Source of the DNA: Bacteroidales bacterium
GTDB taxonomy: Bacteria; Bacteroidota; Bacteroidia; Bacteroidales; WCHB1-69
DNA length: 64,000 nucleotides
Assembly (NCBI GenBank): GCA_045616665.1
Contig: JAZLHE010000098.1
Location: 8,034-72,033, forward strand
Direction of reading: 5' to 3'
The notes under the pieces are model-generated. The model was given only the letters and a program-made list of their open reading frames with translations. It was not told the DNA's origin and searched no databases. Position numbers and translations under genes: made by a program. The number at the start of each line of letters is the position of its first letter. Within the stretch, counting starts at the first letter, position 1. Positions 1,156 to 62,852 of this stretch are shown in pieces.

Positions 1156-2142
1156 TCATAAATGACACAAGGAAAAATATTTCTGCATCACGCGCAAGGC
1201 AATATAGCGTTCTCTTCGTTCATCGCGGAATTGTGCAACATATTTCTGCGCATTTTGTGACATTTGTTCTGCTTCTTTGGGATGGGCAGTGTAATAATCC
1301 AATTGCTGATGCAAATCACTGTAGTCATCTTTGATTTCAACATAATGCACGCCGCCTTGAAGACGACCTTCCATAAACCAGGTTTCGCAGGTGGGGCGGG
1401 GCATTACCGCCAAAGAATTGCTCGACATCACCCACTTTAAATTACTGGCCACATCATTGCCTTCCAAGGCCATAATATACTTGTAATCAAGATGTTCATA
1501 TAGAGACATTCGCGGAACGATGGTTTTTCCGTCGGGATTGTCGGCCAGAAGACCGCCATTGGCCAGAGTGTTGGCGGCATCCACGCGCGGATCACTGGCA
1601 AATTGTTGTATAAATCGAATACGGTTTTTGCGCGTGCCCACTTGTCCTCTAAAAATAACGCGGTCTTGTTTATCGGCAAATGGAATCCGGTCATTGACAT
1701 AAACAAAATGCCGACATTTGTCTAATTTCAGCAGTACCGCATTGGCATTATCTGGCGTAAGACTGCGGCTTTTGACAATCGTAGGATAGGGTGGAATGTC
1801 CCGAATATCTCCAAACAGATAATTCCACGGCAAATCGGGATTAAACCAACGGATAATTTCGCGACTGTCATAATAATAGGTGCTATTATGGCCTTTTTTG
1901 TGCAAATCACCGATTCGCGAAGCGGCAGGTCCCAAATCCGAGGATGTCATCAGCTTGCAATAATAGTCAACCCGATCAGCGATATATTTTTCATCGTAAA
2001 GGCGTGCGCAAATTTCCATTTCTTTCTGCAGTTGTTGACGCGTCCACGAATCCGGAACAAGTTCCCGAGCCACGGCTTTCAGATAAAATAGAAATTTGGA
2101 ATTTTTACCGCTATGAAATATGTATTTTAAAGAAGCGTTCAT
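1156..2142 (-). CDS. Glycosyltransferase family 90 / CAP10-domain (LPS-modifying type) protein
   Basis: The ORF track starts at a TTG (2154); the first ATG (2142) gives MNASLKYIF... The C-terminal half (FRGQVGTRKNRIRFIQQF..., YKYIMALEGNDVASNLKWVMSSNSLAVMPRPTCETWFMEGRLQGGVHYVEI) resembles the CAP10/GT90 domain from memory. No HMM was run. Confidence 0.65.
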   Translation of the reverse strand: MNASLKYIFHSGKNSKFLFYLKAVARELVPDSWTRQQLQKEMEICARLYDEKYIADRVDYYCKLMTSSDLGPAASRIGDLHKKGHNSTYYYDSREIIRWFNPDLPWNYLFGDIRDIPPYPTIVKSRSLTPDNANAVLLKLDKCRHFVYVNDRIPFADKQDRVIFRGQVGTRKNRIRFIQQFASDPRVDAANTLANGGLLADNPDGKTIVPRMSLYEHLDYKYIMALEGNDVASNLKWVMSSNSLAVMPRPTCETWFMEGRLQGGVHYVEIKDDYSDLHQQLDYYTAHPKEAEQMSQNAQKYVAQFRDERRERYIALRVMQKYFSLCHL

Positions 2143-2254: not shown

Positions 2255-3598
2255 TTAGTAAGCAATACCTTGAGCGATCATAGCGTTGGCAACCTTGATG
2301 AAACCAGCGATATTGGCACCCTTAACGTAGTTGATGTAACCGTTCTTTTCGGTACCATATTTAACGCAGTTTTCGTGGATGTTGTTCATGATGCCGTGTA
2401 ATTTTTCATCAACTTCGGCAGCAGTCCAAGAAAGGTGCATAGCGTTTTGGCTCATTTCAAGACCTGAAGTAGCAACGCCACCAGCGTTAGCAGCTTTACC
2501 AGGAGCGAAAGAAACTTTCTTCTTCTGTAATGCGGCAACAGCGTCAGCGGTACAACCCATATTAGAAACTTCAACAACGTATTTAACCTTGTTGGCGATC
2601 AACATCTTGGCATCGTCACCGTTCAATTCGTTCTGGATAGCGCAAGTCATAGCGATTTCGCAAGGAACTTCCCATACTTTGTGACCCTTAACGAATTTAG
2701 CTGATTTGAACTTCTTGGCGAAAGGTTCAACAACGTTGTTACGTGTTGCGTTCAATTCGTTCATATAAGCGATCTTTTCAGGAGTGCTGATACCTTCTTC
2801 GTCAATGATGTAACCATCAGGACCAGAGATAGCAACTAACTTAGCGCCGAGTTCGGCAAGTTTAAGAGCCGTACCCCAAGCAACGTTACCGAAACCAGAG
2901 ATGATGCAGCGTTTGCCTTTCAGTTTGTCTTTCTTAGCAGCCAACATACCTTCCAAGAAATAAACAGCACCGAAACCGGTAGCTTCTGGACGAATCAAAG
3001 AACCGCCCCATTCAAGACCTTTACCAGTGAGAACGCCAACGTGTTCGCCACGGAGTCTCTTATATTGACCATACATGAAACCGATTTCACGACCGCCAAC
3101 ACCGATATCACCAGCAGGAACGTCAGTATCAGCACCGATATATTTCTGTAATTCAGTCATGAAAGCTTGGCAGAAACGCATAACTTCGCCTTCTGATTTG
3201 CCCTTAGGATCGAAGTCAGAACCACCTTTGCCACCACCCATTGGGAGAGTAGTCAAAGAGTTTTTGAAAGTCTGTTCGAAAGCCAAGAATTTCATTGTGT
3301 CTTCAGTTACTGTAGGATGGAAACGGATACCGCCCTTGTAAGGTCCGATAGCCATATTGTGTTGTACACGGTAACCACGGTTTACTTGGATATTACCCTT
3401 ATCGTCAACCCAGGTAACTTTGAATTTGATAATTCTTTCAGGTTCAAGAATTCTTTCTACGATTTTGTAATTGTCATAGATAGGATTTTCGTTCACGAAA
3501 TCACAAATGGTTTCCAAAACTTCGGTAGCAGCCTGAATGTACAGAGGTTGTCCCGGATTCTTAGCCGTTACGTCGGCAACTAATTTTTTAAGATCCAT
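2255..3598 (-). CDS. gdhA: NAD(P)-specific glutamate dehydrogenase
   Basis: 447 aa. Carries the Glu/Leu/Phe/Val dehydrogenase catalytic block PMGGGKGGSDFDPKGKS, plus KGGIRFHP and the dinucleotide fold ISGFGNVAWG. Confidence 0.95.
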   Translation of the reverse strand: MDLKKLVADVTAKNPGQPLYIQAATEVLETICDFVNENPIYDNYKIVERILEPERIIKFKVTWVDDKGNIQVNRGYRVQHNMAIGPYKGGIRFHPTVTEDTMKFLAFEQTFKNSLTTLPMGGGKGGSDFDPKGKSEGEVMRFCQAFMTELQKYIGADTDVPAGDIGVGGREIGFMYGQYKRLRGEHVGVLTGKGLEWGGSLIRPEATGFGAVYFLEGMLAAKKDKLKGKRCIISGFGNVAWGTALKLAELGAKLVAISGPDGYIIDEEGISTPEKIAYMNELNATRNNVVEPFAKKFKSAKFVKGHKVWEVPCEIAMTCAIQNELNGDDAKMLIANKVKYVVEVSNMGCTADAVAALQKKKVSFAPGKAANAGGVATSGLEMSQNAMHLSWTAAEVDEKLHGIMNNIHENCVKYGTEKNGYINYVKGANIAGFIKVANAMIAQGIAY

Positions 3599-10080: not shown

Positions 10081-10220
10081 GTGATCAGTGATCCGTGAAC
10101 AGATTTATTTGCTTGTGCGAGTGTAAAGACGTATCTCTCCACGGCTCTACTGGCGAACTCTTAATTTCTTAATTATTATAATGTCTCCCCATCAGCTCAC
10201 CGATCACTGCTCACTGTTCA
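10081..10220. repeat. Inverted arrays of TGANCNG heptamers flanking a 90-bp core
   Basis: The left arm on plus strand is TGATCAG TGATCCG TGAACAG (10082..10102). The right arm read on the minus strand is TGAACAG TGAGCAG TGATCGG TGAGCTG (10220..10193) and starts directly after the TAG stop of the LOG-family gene. The arms can pair at 16 of 19 positions. Confidence 0.7.
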
Positions 10221-10811
10221 CTACTTTTTAATCTTATCCAACCAATGTCTGTCGTTAGAATTTTCGTAATGATCTAACTTGTAGAACAAATCGTCCAAAT
10301 CTCGAGCCACAATCAGCAAATCGTAATGGAATGGCCTCAGGAAACCGTCTTGACGAAAACGGTCGAGTTGAGCCACCAAGTGATCGTAGTAACCATCCGC
10401 ATTCAACAAGGCCACTGGTTTTTGATGCAAGCCCAACTGGGCATCTGTCATCATCTCGAAGAATTCATCCATAGTGCCATACGAACCGGGAAGTATTACA
10501 AAGCCATCGGCTTTTTCTTCAAGCATTTGTTTTCTTTCACTCATTGAATTGACTAAAATCAGATTTTCTCCCAGCGACATATCCAACACGGTTCCATTGG
10601 AAAAGAAATTTGGTGCAATACCTACCACACGACCTCCGTTGGCACGGGCAGCCTCTGATGCCGCCACCATTAAACCAATGGAAGCTCCGCCGTAATACAA
10701 CGTGAGATTTTTTTCCGCACATCGCTTTCCGAACTCGGCTGCCAACTCAACAAAAAAAGGATTATTTCCCTGCGAAGATCCGCAATACAATGCCAAAGAC
10801 GAATATTTCAT
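10221..10811 (-). CDS. LOG family protein (TIGR00730-type nucleotide 5'-monophosphate nucleosidase)
   Basis: 196 aa with the PGSYGTMDEFFE (PGGxGTxxE) motif and GGASIGLM. The start overlaps the pssA stop by 4 nt. Confidence 0.85.
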   Translation of the reverse strand: MKYSSLALYCGSSQGNNPFFVELAAEFGKRCAEKNLTLYYGGASIGLMVAASEAARANGGRVVGIAPNFFSNGTVLDMSLGENLILVNSMSERKQMLEEKADGFVILPGSYGTMDEFFEMMTDAQLGLHQKPVALLNADGYYDHLVAQLDRFRQDGFLRPFHYDLLIVARDLDDLFYKLDHYENSNDRHWLDKIKK

Positions 10812-55245: not shown

Positions 55246-55434
55246 GAGATGAGAGATGAAAGTTGAAAGATGAAAGATGAAAGATGAAAGATGAAAGATG
55301 AAAGATGAGAGATGAAAGATGAGAGATGAAAGATGAAAGTTGAAAGATGAAAGATGAGAGATGAGAGATGAAAGATGAGAGATGAAAGATGAGAGATGAG
55401 AGATGAAAGATGAAAGATGAAAGTTGAAATTTGA
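55246..55434 (+). repeat. 27-unit perfectly phased heptanucleotide tandem repeat (RAGWTGA)
   Basis: Hand count: 14 aagatga, 9 gagatga, 3 aagttga and 1 aatttga, with no indel over 189 bp. It starts 2 nt after the TAA of 54474..55244 and ends 69 nt before the glyA ATG. Confidence 0.95.
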
Positions 55435-59667: not shown

Positions 59668-60579
59668 ATGAGAAAAGACTGGTTTTATTATCTGTTATTG
59701 GTTATTGCCGCATCATTATGGGGAAGTTCCTTTATTTTCACCAAGCAATTACTCATTGATGCCTCCCCTATTACCATCATTTTTTCAAGAGTTTTAATCG
59801 CCAGTGTCGTTTTTCTTTGCATTTGCTTTCTGTTTTTTAGAGAAAAGATGAAAATTGCGAAGAAAGACATTCCCATCATCATTGCCTTCAGTTGCTTTGA
59901 GCCTTTTTTATACTTTATTTTCGAAACCTACAGTCTCACCTACTGCGACGCATCCGTCGTATCGGTCATCGTGGCCACCATTCCCATTGGAACCGCCTTT
60001 TTGTCTTTATTTTACTTCAAGGAAAACTTCTCGCTCATCAATTTGTCAGGTGTATTTATCACTTTCTTAGGCATCTTCACAATGCTATTTCCTTCATTTG
60101 CAAACGCTTCCGTAAGTGTAAAGGGTATTTTATTGGCATTCGGCGCAGTAACGGCTTCTATGGGCTACACCTTCTTCGTCAGAAAATTTCCCGAACACTA
60201 TCACCCGACAGTTGTCATCACCTATCAAAACCTGATCGGCTTAATGCTGTTCACCCCACTGATGTTGATTCTTTACGACAATCAAGTCGTTATCAGTGAA
60301 TTGAGCACCTTATTTTTAACATCCGACCTCTATTATCTGAGTGCTTTGGCCATTTTATGTTCCGCCCTTGCCTTTATGTTTTACTTACAGGGCATTCGGC
60401 GTTTTGGCATCGGAAAATCAAGTATTTTCACAAATTTCATTCCCATTGTAACAGCCGTTTTATCATTCATCATACTGGGGGAATCTTTCCCGCATTACAA
60501 AATTCTCGGCATAATCATCGTTATTGTTGGAATTTTCCTGGTACAACAAAAGAAGAAACCAGAAAGACAAAGACAATAA
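59668..60579 (+). CDS. DMT superfamily (EamA-type) transporter
   Basis: 303 aa with 10 hydrophobic segments arranged as two EamA-like halves. Confidence 0.8.
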   Translation: MRKDWFYYLLLVIAASLWGSSFIFTKQLLIDASPITIIFSRVLIASVVFLCICFLFFREKMKIAKKDIPIIIAFSCFEPFLYFIFETYSLTYCDASVVSVIVATIPIGTAFLSLFYFKENFSLINLSGVFITFLGIFTMLFPSFANASVSVKGILLAFGAVTASMGYTFFVRKFPEHYHPTVVITYQNLIGLMLFTPLMLILYDNQVVISELSTLFLTSDLYYLSALAILCSALAFMFYLQGIRRFGIGKSSIFTNFIPIVTAVLSFIILGESFPHYKILGIIIVIVGIFLVQQKKKPERQRQ

Positions 60580-60586
60580 CAACACT

Positions 60587-61225
60587 ATGCTTCGTACCTT
60601 ATTGATTGCCTCCAATGCCATCACATTGGTCCTGTTTCACTATGAACGAATTCACGCACGTCATTTAGAAGGCAAAGTACTGAGGATGAAATTATCGCCT
60701 CATTTCTTATTCAACCGACTGTCTGATCTTCACAGCCTGTACTACCCTCTTGACGTCAAAGCAAGCGAAATCATTTTGGATATTGCCACTCACACGCGTT
60801 ATCAGATACGGCATATCGACAGTCCCAAAGTTCCTTTATCTATTGAAATGGAGCACATCCGACAAAGTATCAATTTTTTCTCAAAGAACCTTGATCCAAG
60901 CACCGAAATTCAATTCAACTATTCTAGTACCGCAACGGAAAAGCCATCCATTTTACCTTGCCTGTTTGACGATGTGCTATACAATTGTTTCAAATACGCG
61001 AAAAGGAGAAACGGATACATTTTTATAAATATAAGCATTAACTCTCAGCATAAACTGTGTTTACACTGCATTAATAATTACGAATACGACAATGTCCATT
61101 CCACGCAAAATGGAATGGACATTCTGGTAAGATTATTGCACATCTACTATCCTCATCGGCATTCCGTCAAAACCAGTCACGATGACGAATACCACACGAT
61201 AGCGATATCGCTTCAACTCAATTAA
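60587..61225 (+). CDS. LytS/YehU-type histidine-kinase-like protein, short and apparently degenerate
   Basis: The start was moved to ATG 60587 (MLRTLLIASNAITLVLF, one TM). It has the His_kinase H-box LSPHFLFNRLSDL. The ATP-lid region lacks clear DxGxG/GxG boxes (NNYEYD..., NGMDILVRLLHIY). No LytTR regulator lies adjacent. Confidence 0.55.
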   Translation: MLRTLLIASNAITLVLFHYERIHARHLEGKVLRMKLSPHFLFNRLSDLHSLYYPLDVKASEIILDIATHTRYQIRHIDSPKVPLSIEMEHIRQSINFFSKNLDPSTEIQFNYSSTATEKPSILPCLFDDVLYNCFKYAKRRNGYIFINISINSQHKLCLHCINNYEYDNVHSTQNGMDILVRLLHIYYPHRHSVKTSHDDEYHTIAISLQLN

Positions 61226-62376
61226 TTTTTTATTGCGGCAATTTCCTTGATAGCCGTAATCGCCGTATCGATGTCTGCTTCGGTATTGAAAGCGCCAATA
61301 CTCAAGCGAACCGTACCGTGAATGTCAATAGTGCCGAGTCCAACGTGAACCTTGGGAGCGCATTGCAAGCCCGTACGACAAGCGATGTCGTAATCCACGT
61401 CGAGCATCGTGCCCACGTCGCCCGCCTCGAAACCGTTGATATTGATTGACATCACCGGATTGTGATTTTCCACAGATTCAGCGCAATATAAGGTTACGCC
61501 TGGCACATCCTTGATACCCAGACGCAATTTTTCCCACAGCTTCATTTCCTGGTTATGCAGATTTTCAACACCCTGCTCCATTACCCACTTCACACCTGCG
61601 TGCAAGCCGGCCACGCCCAGGAGATTCATTGTTCCGGCTTCCAAACGATAAGGATATTCTTCCAAATGGCCGGGGAATGCAGAACGGACACCCGTACCGC
61701 CGAAACGCGTATGGTTGATGGTGACACCTTCCCGAACGTATGAACCGCCGATACCTGTAGGTCCCATCAGGCATTTATGACCTGTAAACGCATAGCAATC
61801 CACGCCAAAATTGACCATATCCATTGTATTGGCACCGGCACCCTGGCTTCCGTCAACGACAAAGACAATACCGTTTTCCTTGCAGACCTTACCAATTTCG
61901 GCAATAGGCTGCACGGTACCAATTACATTGGAGCATTGCGTGCAAACCGCAAATTTTGTATTGGGTTTAATCGCTTTCTTGAAATCATCGGGATCGACAT
62001 AGCCGTGCTTGTCAAAAGGCAGATAAGTCACCTCGATCAATCCTTTCTGTTCCATTGCATACAAGGGACGCAGTACCGAATTGTGTTCCAGCATCGTCGT
62101 GATGACGTGGGCGCCTTTTTCCACCAACCCCTGAATCAGGATATTCAACGAATCGGTAGCGTTATAACTGAAAGTCAAACGATTGGGATCACCGCCACCG
62201 TTGAACAATTGGGTCAGCATTTTTCTGGTATTTTCAACCAACTCACCCGTTTCGATAGCCGCATCGAAACCCGAACGTCCGGGACTAACCCCGTGGGTAC
62301 GGTAATACGTGTTCATAAAATCATAAACCACATCGGGTTTTGGATAAGTTGTAGCTGAATTGTCTAAGTAAATCAT
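61222..62376 (-). CDS. Cysteine desulfurase family class-V aminotransferase
   Basis: 384 aa with IYLDNSATTYP, the PLP lysine FTGHKCLMGPTGIGG and the active-site Cys loop RTGLQCAP. Confidence 0.88.
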   Translation of the reverse strand: MIYLDNSATTYPKPDVVYDFMNTYYRTHGVSPGRSGFDAAIETGELVENTRKMLTQLFNGGGDPNRLTFSYNATDSLNILIQGLVEKGAHVITTMLEHNSVLRPLYAMEQKGLIEVTYLPFDKHGYVDPDDFKKAIKPNTKFAVCTQCSNVIGTVQPIAEIGKVCKENGIVFVVDGSQGAGANTMDMVNFGVDCYAFTGHKCLMGPTGIGGSYVREGVTINHTRFGGTGVRSAFPGHLEEYPYRLEAGTMNLLGVAGLHAGVKWVMEQGVENLHNQEMKLWEKLRLGIKDVPGVTLYCAESVENHNPVMSININGFEAGDVGTMLDVDYDIACRTGLQCAPKVHVGLGTIDIHGTVRLSIGAFNTEADIDTAITAIKEIAAIKN

Positions 62377-62455
62377 ATCTTTCTTTTTTCAATCTATTCT
62401 ATGATGCTTAAATCAACGTCTTTTCTTGAATTATGACCGCTAATTTTTGTAGCGG

Positions 62456-62463
62456 CAAAGATA
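62456..62463 (-). promoter_or_regulatory. -7 promoter box (TATCTTTG on minus strand) for the cysteine desulfurase gene
   Basis: The reverse complement of caaagata matches TAnnTTTG, 80 nt upstream of the ATG at 62376. Confidence 0.4.
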
Positions 62464-62750
62464 CTAAAAATATATCAATTTCTGCATTACTTAAAAATGG
62501 TTTTTCAAAAGGGCAAATTCAACTAACAATTCCTCAAAAAAATTCGGAATTACCCCGTTTAGTCTTGTAAGGAGATTTCGCCTTTGCTTCGCGTCGGCAG
62601 AATGGCAACGAAGCGTCGGTCTCAAGAAGTGCGGCGACGGAAAGCAAGTGCGATATTGTTTCAAGGTGTCGCCGCAAACAGCTCCACGACAAAAAATCGC
62701 CCTTCACCAATCACTTGATTGGCGGAGGATAGAATGTGCCGCGGAAAGAC

Positions 62751-62852
62751 CACCCCGCGCTTGCCTCTCGCCGCCCGCCGCGCGGGTTATATTAGCCGTA
62801 AGTGTCTTAAAAGCAATTCTAAACCCTAATCCCTACACCCTATACCCTAATT
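62751..62852 (-). repeat. Conserved 3'-flank element, copy 1 (period-7 TAGGGNN units plus GC-rich segment)
   Basis: Starts at the FISUMP stop codon. The minus strand reads TAA aat TAGGGTA TAGGGTG TAGGGAT TAGGGTT TAGAATT ..., then cggctaatataacccgcgcggcgggcgg...gcgcggggtg. About 90 of 102 positions are identical to copy 2 by hand alignment. Confidence 0.85.

Follow-up and report, generated by a model that had tools for sequence, protein, structure and literature searches.

A modular G-rich heptamer element behind hypervariable FISUMP lipoprotein genes in a Bacteroidales genome

Repetitive extragenic palindromic (REP) elements of enterobacteria shield upstream mRNA from 3' exonucleases. Rehm et al. 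2015 (PMC4692102) described the quadruplex-forming heptamers GGGAATC and GGGGA(C/T)T as dispersed repeats of Xanthomonas and Nostoc PCC 7120. Fib_succ_major is a published target class of diversity-generating retroelements (DGRs) (Wu et al. 2018, PMC5758913). In the BPP-1 DGR, efficient homing depends on the initiation of mutagenic homing (IMH) sequence and on a GC-rich hairpin/cruciform with a GRNA tetraloop, placed 4-34 bp after the variable region (VR) (Guo et al. 2011, PMC3240598). All three systems bear on an element of about 100 nt that occurs twice, at 62751..62852 and 63775..63875, directly behind two FISUMP lipoprotein genes in the window, the whole 64,000-nt stretch of DNA that was analysed (contig C98:8034-72033 of genome G000).

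This feature is real, a composite, specific to its lineage, in which a known repeat class is attached to lipoprotein genes with DGR-type hypervariation. It is built of three repeat modules, namely a heptamer array and the modules A1 and A2, and the chances are about even that it forms the structured 3' untranslated region (3'-UTR) of a recently expanded family of small FISUMP surface lipoproteins, lying beside a DGR-type VR. Genome G000 belongs to the Bacteroidales and comprises 2.82 Mb in 114 contigs with 42.8% G+C; several of these contigs break within FISUMP genes.

Like the heptamers of Xanthomonas and Nostoc (PMC4692102), the array consists of tandem 7-nt units with a G3 tract, is found in dozens of dispersed non-coding copies, prefers four units (27 of the 38 arrays here), stands on the sense strand just past a stop codon, and differs in copy number and unit sequence among loci and relatives. 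It is distinguished from them by its occurrence in another phylum (a rumen-type Bacteroidales), its unit GGGTTNA/GGGTRTA, its fewer copies, and its fusion to A1 and A2 beside DGR-type VRs; its G-quadruplex (G4) is a predicted one. The array is a member of the already described G-rich heptamer class and is not specific to FISUMP genes.

The genes upstream of the element can be compared with the Fib_succ_major/DUF1566 targets of DGRs (category 'd', CLec2; PMC5758913), which also carry a C-terminal VR in a Fib_succ_major lipoprotein. As in other DGR targets (PMC5758913, PMC3240598), NNC/NNT codons are set in a fixed scaffold and the conserved block starts at the end of the VR. A complete cassette of the same genus has a template repeat (TR) that fits the VRs of G000. 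In contrast to described systems, this assembly has no cognate TR or reverse transcriptase (RT), its VRs number at least 11 with internal domains included, and a G3 heptamer array stands where a GC stem with a GRNA loop is usual (PMC3240598).

Anatomy and distribution of the element

The element is read in the sense direction of both genes, on the minus strand. A first-pass annotation of the window had put the identity of the two copies at about 90 of 102 positions, and pairwise alignment gave exactly this number with one gap. The pattern G3N4G3N4G3N4G3, four G3 tracts with 4-nt loops, was confirmed at the annotated positions (GGGTATAGGGTGTAGGGATTAGGG at 62824..62847 and GGGTTGAGGGTGTAGGGATTAGGG at 63848..63871). 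It is non-random, being expected 0.01 times per 64-kb window, and two or more matches were obtained in none of 100 shuffles. This is a canonical G4-type pattern, and the G4 predictor that the annotation had recommended gave G4Hunter scores of 1.54 for copy 1 and 1.54-1.58 across copies. Both arrays directly follow FISUMP frames (PF09603), whose stop codons (62853..62855 for copy 1 and 63876..63878 for copy 2, minus strand) lie 4-5 nt before the array. The GC-rich segment, annotated with a cccgc/gcggg hairpin, has 78% G+C against 42% for the window and contains the inverted repeat CCCGCGC/GCGCGGG. Counted from the first G of the array, the array occupies positions 0-23, A1 24-60 and A2 61-93. 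The features of the locus are as follows.

62824..62847, minus strand: heptamer array of copy 1, GGGTATA GGGTGTA GGGATTA GGG, four G3 tracts with 4-nt spacers, starting 5 nt past the stop codon
62787..62823, minus strand: module A1 of copy 1, 37 nt, TTTAGAATTGCTTTTAAGACACTTACGGCTAATATAA, partial complement of the array via many G-U pairs
62754..62786, minus strand: module A2 of copy 1, GC-rich hairpin with arms CCCGCGC (62780..62786) and GCGCGGG (62754..62760) and a 19-nt loop with the conserved core GGCGGCGAGAGGCAAGCGC
63848..63871, minus strand: heptamer array of copy 2, GGGTTGA GGGTGTA GGGATTA GGG, starting 4 nt past the stop codon
63811..63847, minus strand: module A1 of copy 2
63778..63810, minus strand: module A2 of copy 2, CCTGCGG ... 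GCGCGGG, loop core GGCGGTGAAAGGCAAGCGC
62853..63656, minus strand: FISUMP lipoprotein gene C98a, 267 aa, lipoprotein signal ...VVMGSC, PF09603 with E = 4e-39; the element is its 3' flank
63876..64000, minus strand: 3' end of the second FISUMP gene (C98b), a more distant paralogue that runs on beyond the window for 197 nt before the contig end truncates it
62856..62887, minus strand: conserved last ~30 coding nt of C98a (GG. TT. AG. GTC CG. TGT.TT CGG GAC), 87-100% identical among paralogues, synonymous sites included
62888..63024, minus strand: DGR-type VR of C98a, hypervariable NNC/NNT codons in an invariant scaffold, ending 30 nt before the stop codon
about 62691..62725, minus strand: terminator-like hairpin followed by T6, outside the repeated unit and ~30-60 nt downstream of copy 1, seen in the sequence and in folds and missed by a simple terminator scan

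An 81-aa open reading frame (ORF) on the plus strand, 62648..62893, overlies the element and is considered spurious; it reads through the C-rich array into flanks that have no match in the other copies.

A BLAST search of the genome revealed five full copies (C98a, C98b, C60, C106, C57) and one partial copy (C16), the latter made of the array and A1 only. The ORF upstream of each of these six ends in ...SVRC[LV]RD and is a FISUMP gene. The likeness among copies stops at about +97, beyond which identity falls to the random level (about 47%). A1 is ~90% identical across the five full copies and occurs eight times in the genome, each time directly 3' of a G3 array; two of the eight are behind non-FISUMP genes (C95:112479, C85:13339). 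All eight array-A1 copies begin at a stop codon or within 12 nt of one, with three unrelated gene families upstream, and in C95 the first unit of the array itself supplies the stop codon TAG. On C8, C79, C90 and C112 the array is present with other sequences downstream of it, and C96 has A2 without the array and without A1. The element is therefore modular: array, A1 and A2 occur independently. As for whether the element always follows FISUMP genes, as the annotation had suggested should be searched, the five full copies and the partial one do, whereas the arrays (38 in total) and two array-A1 copies are also found behind other genes.

The A2 core has seven copies in G000, two in G008 and one in G005, each of them downstream of a FISUMP gene. 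The remaining genomes among the 152 of the family that were searched had no exact match, with one match at two mismatches in G118. A2 is confined to this species and two congeners. The full element was not found in 40 relatives searched and is seen only in this genome.

Heptamer arrays as a genome-wide repeat class

Thirty-eight arrays of at least four G3 tracts at spacing 4 are present in the genome; spacings 1 to 9 gave 0, 0, 0, 38, 0, 0, 0, 0 and 2 arrays. The number of G-tracts is exactly four in 27 of the 38. By crude ORF calls, 13 of the 38 start within 29 nt past a co-oriented ORF, 12 of these within 13 nt. Most of the arrays adjoin genes unrelated to FISUMP or to DGR targets. In relatives from the order, arrays are patchy and have lineage-specific units (GGGACAA, GGGTATC, GGGATTA, GGGTTTC). 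The likeness to a plant telomere, noted in the first-pass annotation, is merely the unit sequence of this bacterial heptamer class, and a telomere- or telomerase-like origin was rejected, the unit varying by lineage and the arrays being short, interstitial and located at gene ends. Another candidate role, in which a stop codon in each unit makes a three-frame translation barrier, holds for the units here and was rejected as a general explanation on those of the relatives, where GGGACAA and GGGTATC lack stops.

Tandem Repeats Finder (TRF) reported 229 period-7 tandem arrays in the genome, with many unit types, some of 20-36 units, and different units abutting. The G3 arrays are a sub-class of these 229, which resemble the cyanobacterial short tandemly repeated repetitive (STRR) sequences and the prokaryotic long simple-sequence repeats with units of 5-11 nt. 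The heptanucleotide units of STRR sequences are not built on G3 tracts and are likewise not known to have a function. In the window, further period-7 arrays comprise 26 units of AGATGAA at 55247..55429 (plus strand) and a short pair, GTGATCA / GCTCACT, at 10081..10102 and 10195..10222.

Other modules accompany the arrays elsewhere. A second recurrent module, GGAAGC.AAGATGCTGATAATTCCCCTCCTTTGGAGGGG with a CCCCTCC/GGAGGGG hairpin, lies downstream of at least ten G3 arrays (contigs C11, C23, C27, C41, C55, C56, C68, C91, C104, C112 and C90). Three more module families follow G3 arrays, and the intergenic DNA of the genome forms a mosaic in which a few small repeats recur. Convergent pairs of G3 arrays surround a conserved centre of 35-55 nt with no gene between them at C26:3137..3240 and C68:6625..6790. 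According to TRF coordinates, stand-alone PF05635 genes (23S rRNA intervening-sequence / Avd-like four-helix-bundle) are bracketed on both sides by heptamer arrays at C99:12998..13315, C108:32790..33104 and C95:104767..105081; the convergent pairs may be 'empty' versions of such array-bracketed cassettes.

FISUMP paralogues, their variable regions and the DGR machinery

The full-length paralogues (267, 268 and 285 aa) share 76-82% of their protein sequence, and C98a is 72-82% identical to C57, C60 and C106. No near-identical strain variants of the protein were found, the closest outside match being 75% identical. At the nucleotide level identity among C98a, C60 and C57 is 80-100% over most of the gene, beginning ~28 nt ahead of the start codon. 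In a sliding comparison identity dips to 50-80% at about -185 to -35 and is back to about 90% at -34 to +65. In the codon alignment ~22 codons have C or T as third base throughout and three or four different bases at positions 1 and 2; between them lie codons that are invariant, synonymous sites included. The variable columns of this region number 49, nearly all of them at these first two positions.

At least 11 FISUMP domains show DGR-type hypervariation, namely 62888..63024 and ten on C60, C57, C106, C16, C90 and C112, four of them internal to multi-domain proteins. In the alignment of 11 VRs the 44 hypervariable columns are distributed 25/16/3 over codon positions 1/2/3, compared with 14/10/20 in the upstream half, and the third base is C or T in every hypervariable codon. 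The scaffold consists of 137 columns, with deviations at 2-14 of them per copy. This NNC/NNT pattern on a fixed scaffold points to adenine-directed mutagenesis of the DGR type, with AAC/AAT codons in the template.

The first-pass annotation had held that the flank is better conserved than the genes. This impression arises largely from hypermutation, since in close paralogues the ~140 coding nt before the final 30 nt form the DGR-type VR. Its related statement, which limits the likeness of the coding sequences to the last ~24 nt, is correct for the part of C98b visible in the window and misleading for the family, where most of the gene is 80-100% identical in C98a, C60 and C57. The annotation had also considered that a recent duplication with equally similar coding regions could explain the conservation; this is nearly the case for the close paralogues, which are 80-100% identical outside the VR. 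Copy 2 is a genuine exception. Its gene, C98b, has a synonymous divergence (dS) of 0.8-1.3 from the others and 54-60% protein identity over the 105 available codons.

The unit repeated among paralogues extends from ~28 nt before the start codon to ~97 nt past the start of the array. Its 5' edge reads ATGAATCATCAAAAAA.TA.AGA.CT ATG in a comparison of window positions 63657..63775 with the equivalents of C60 and C57. As the unit starts so close to the start codon, it carries the coding sequence and the tail but no promoter. Upstream of the edge the sequences of C98a, C60 and C57 are unrelated, so that each FISUMP copy has acquired a different promoter region. An integron attC-like site, which would combine a promoterless ORF with a 3' element, was set aside: inspection by eye revealed no GTTRRRY / RYYYAAC pair, and there is no integrase nearby.

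Complete cassettes were found by exact search with a predicted template segment on two contigs of Bacteroidales metagenome-assembled genomes among the genome contigs; they are foreign to G000. One of these contigs belongs to the same-genus genome G009, and the FISUMP-type RT is present in 17 of the 152 family genomes. The cassette order is FISUMP target, non-coding AAC-rich TR, a protein of 229-230 aa that matches bAvd weakly, and RT. TR-VR mismatches in the cassette of the same genus (L043/L044) number 28 at adenines against 1 elsewhere. In L042 they number 28 at adenines against 10 elsewhere, in an alignment that runs past the stop codon into unrelated flank. In both L042 and L043 the TR-VR homology extends to the stop codon, and the TR of the same-genus DGR has AAC/AAT at the hypervariable codons. 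The conserved last ~30 coding nt in G000 are the counterpart of the 3' end of the TR-VR homology, the IMH position, in these related DGRs. Compared with the VRs of G000, whose own TR is absent from the assembly, the foreign TRs (L042, L043) have 28-39 mismatches at A and 17-26 at other positions.

The single RT of the assembly, on C13, is 31% identical to the FISUMP-type RT, and the accessory homologue is absent from the assembly. The FISUMP-type TR, whose signature is TTCTGGTCGGCTACCCAG followed by AAC/AAT codons, is not present in the assembly either, apart from an in-frame TR-like domain (C90i), and exact-pattern scans of metagenome contigs and viral contigs did not find a lineage-specific TR. 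The cognate diversifier may be unassembled, unbinned or lost; contigs break in FISUMP genes.

Two candidates within the assembly were rejected. The C13 RT is not the FISUMP diversifier: the only target that its TR matches is the one next to it, and every mismatch there falls at an adenine. It belongs to a separate complete DGR at C13:1989..4837 with a 338-aa FGE-sulfatase-like target (VR ending ...GFRLVLVP), a 154-aa ORF and the RT (Pfam match 2331..2912). The TR of this DGR, ~1999..2132, overlaps the end of the RT frame and has 20-odd mismatches with the VR, all at adenines; the 24 nt behind the VR recur inverted behind the TR. The second candidate, C90i, is an internal FISUMP domain at C90:1700..1872 with an unmutated AAC/AAT run of ~95 nt, QNNSNNAYNRNLNYNNANVNRNNNNK. 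It was rejected as a template repeat, being in frame in a two-domain lipoprotein, mutated at both ends and with no RT near it. C90i is probably a little-mutated VR that resembles a copy of the missing TR. The A columns of this TR-like domain show ~5 differences per column, against 0.7-1.8 for the other bases.

A perfect GC hairpin, GTAGAGACG ... CGTCTCTAC, occurs in Asn-rich, apparently coding stretches near FISUMP genes (C106:1835..1948, C60:170..283, C16:76860..76982). The same hairpin also follows the TR in the G009 cassette and several G3 arrays elsewhere.

Probable role at the mRNA 3' end and alternative explanations

The annotation had seen no T-run terminator in the element, and indeed there is no intrinsic terminator inside 62751..62852, where A2 is followed by GGTGGTCTTTCC only. 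Canonical terminators of a hairpin and a T-run (T6-T7) lie 35-60 nt past the element in C106 and C85, and copy 1 is followed by its hairpin with T6 30-60 nt further on. Since terminators lie downstream of these three copies, the element is probably within the transcript. ViennaRNA with G-quadruplex energies placed a G4 in the minimum-energy fold of three of the five copies; otherwise, according to RNAalifold with the five copies, the array pairs with A1 in a G-U-rich hairpin of 25 pairs. The 7-bp GC stem of A2 is present in every predicted fold. It is maintained among copies through U-G wobbles that would be C-A mismatches on the opposite strand, and therefore a structure of the sense-strand RNA is mildly favoured.

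Judging from these features, the element would most likely be transcribed, fold in the cell and affect its mRNA. The tail would be transcribed as a 3'-UTR upstream of the terminator. The array could then fold as an RNA G-quadruplex or as a G-U-rich hairpin with A1, and A2 as a GC stem. Together the three modules may form a block at the 3' end of the mRNA, either against 3'-to-5' exonucleases or, by polymerase pausing, on transcription, in a REP-like manner. The element would share with the REP sequences and bacterial interspersed mosaic elements (BIMEs) of Enterobacteriaceae the nature of short dispersed structure-forming repeats in the 3'-UTR, from stop codon to terminator. There is no sequence relationship between them, and REPs are built as imperfect palindromes instead of tandem heptamers. 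The work, which included no search aimed at a RayT/TnpA-REP-like gene, came across none.

Several results weigh against a structured 3'-UTR. Among the 31 pairs predicted by RNAalifold none shows compensatory changes in the five copies. The folding z-scores against shuffles are -1.7 for sense RNA, -1.4 for DNA and -0.7 for antisense RNA, none of them significant. No Rfam family matches the element in a scan of 60000..64000 at E up to 10. G4 formation by the array is a prediction, and the heptamer class has no demonstrated function even in the species studied (PMC4692102). Finally, the last 30 coding nt, array and A1 of C98b are 86-95% identical to the others despite the dS of its gene. A dedicated structured RNA, that is a new RNA element, was rejected on the lack of covariation, the weak z-scores and the absence of an Rfam match. 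The annotation's 3'-UTR proposal is retained as plausible by position, since the four-tract motif has, on the sense strand, the stop codon before it and terminator-like hairpins after it.

Co-inheritance alone is insufficient for copy 2, whose flank calls for constraint, for gene conversion or for a spread of the module by itself, which keeps alive the views of the element as a mobile module and as a target site. As a small non-autonomous mobile or recombinogenic module of the REP kind or of the kind of miniature inverted-repeat transposable elements (MITEs), the array and A1, with or without A2, would have inserted or been copied at gene 3' ends and have no host function, the stop codon in each unit making the reading frame end at the module edge. 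This is unlikely, though it accounts well for the eight dispersed array-A1 copies at the stop codons of three unrelated gene families, for the TAG supplied by the array in C95, for the flank of copy 2, which resembles the other flanks far more than the genes resemble each other, and for arrays elsewhere that precede four other recurrent modules in the intergenic mosaic. However, six of the eight copies are explicable by duplication of a FISUMP gene with its tail, the units of relatives are often without a stop codon (GGGACAA, GGGTATC), there is no associated transposase, and the copies revealed neither terminal inverted repeats nor target-site duplications nor empty sites. It is very improbable that the element is a site of homologous recombination or gene conversion which shuffles or homogenises the variable 3' ends of FISUMP genes. 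The variation among paralogues is point-wise at codon positions 1 and 2 rather than in mosaic blocks, the flank of copy 2 is nearer to distant copies than to its tandem neighbour, and the window has no recombinase gene nearby; in favour of such a site are the sharp identity boundaries at about -30 and +97, the tandem C98a/C98b pair, the several contig breaks inside FISUMP genes, and the precedent of pilin antigenic variation in Neisseria, promoted by a G4 motif (cited in PMC4692102).

The last ~30 coding nt, array, A1 and A2 may alternatively be the cis-acting target of DGR retrohoming, comprising an IMH equivalent and a structure, either the G-quadruplex array or the A2 hairpin, that replaces the GC cruciform, and be conserved as every target of one DGR needs it. 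In BPP-1 the IMH and hairpin/cruciform are sufficient to target a foreign gene (PMC3240598). Here the conserved block begins exactly at the end of the hypervariable region, and a G3 array stands 3-13 nt past the stop codon in 10 of 10 terminal VR-type FISUMP genes. Of ~10 diverged terminal FISUMP ends (C51, C91, C99, C30, C28, C54, C19, C96 and others), only C70:2281 has a GGGTTGA unit, a single one that is followed by non-G3 heptamer arrays. In G009 a conserved ~70-nt 3' flank of GC hairpins is common to a remote FISUMP gene and the target adjacent to the DGR, while the scaffold of the remote gene has diverged, as with copy 2. Against such a target, internal FISUMP domains that lack this flank are equally diversified and have an equally homogeneous scaffold. 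The array with A1 is also behind two non-FISUMP, non-DGR genes, and the majority of the 38 arrays have no connection with DGR targets. The canonical cassettes of this DGR lineage have hairpins of the CCGCC-N4-GGCGG type after the VR and no arrays, and no such hairpin is present here. A2, with its 7-bp stem and 19-nt loop, starts 66 nt past the stop codon, compared with a stem of 7-10 bp and a 4-nt GRNA loop at 4-34 bp in known targets. With the cognate TR and RT also absent from the assembly, a target-site role is quite improbable. Its bolder form, in which in this genus a G4 heptamer array 3-13 nt past every terminal FISUMP VR replaces the cruciform as the non-B DNA that marks DGR targets, is highly unlikely. 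In that form the array might recruit an Avd-like four-helix-bundle protein, given that heptamer arrays bracket the stand-alone PF05635 genes of this genome; if true, G4-marked targets would let one retroelement serve many remote targets.

The reading of the element as a stand-alone structured RNA or FISUMP regulator does not hold up, and dissolves into two known phenomena, the G-rich heptamer repeats of gene ends and the DGR hypervariation of Fib_succ_major lipoproteins. For the FISUMP family, the presence of at least 11 DGR-type variable domains without a matching TR and RT raises the question of whether the diversifier has been lost or resides on a mobile element that was not binned. The array occupies the exact position usual for the cruciform of DGR targets, which makes target recognition a testable hypothesis. 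For the heptamer class, the positional rules (four units, just past the stop codon, sense-strand placement) recur in a distant phylum, and this strengthens the case for a mechanism over lineage history.

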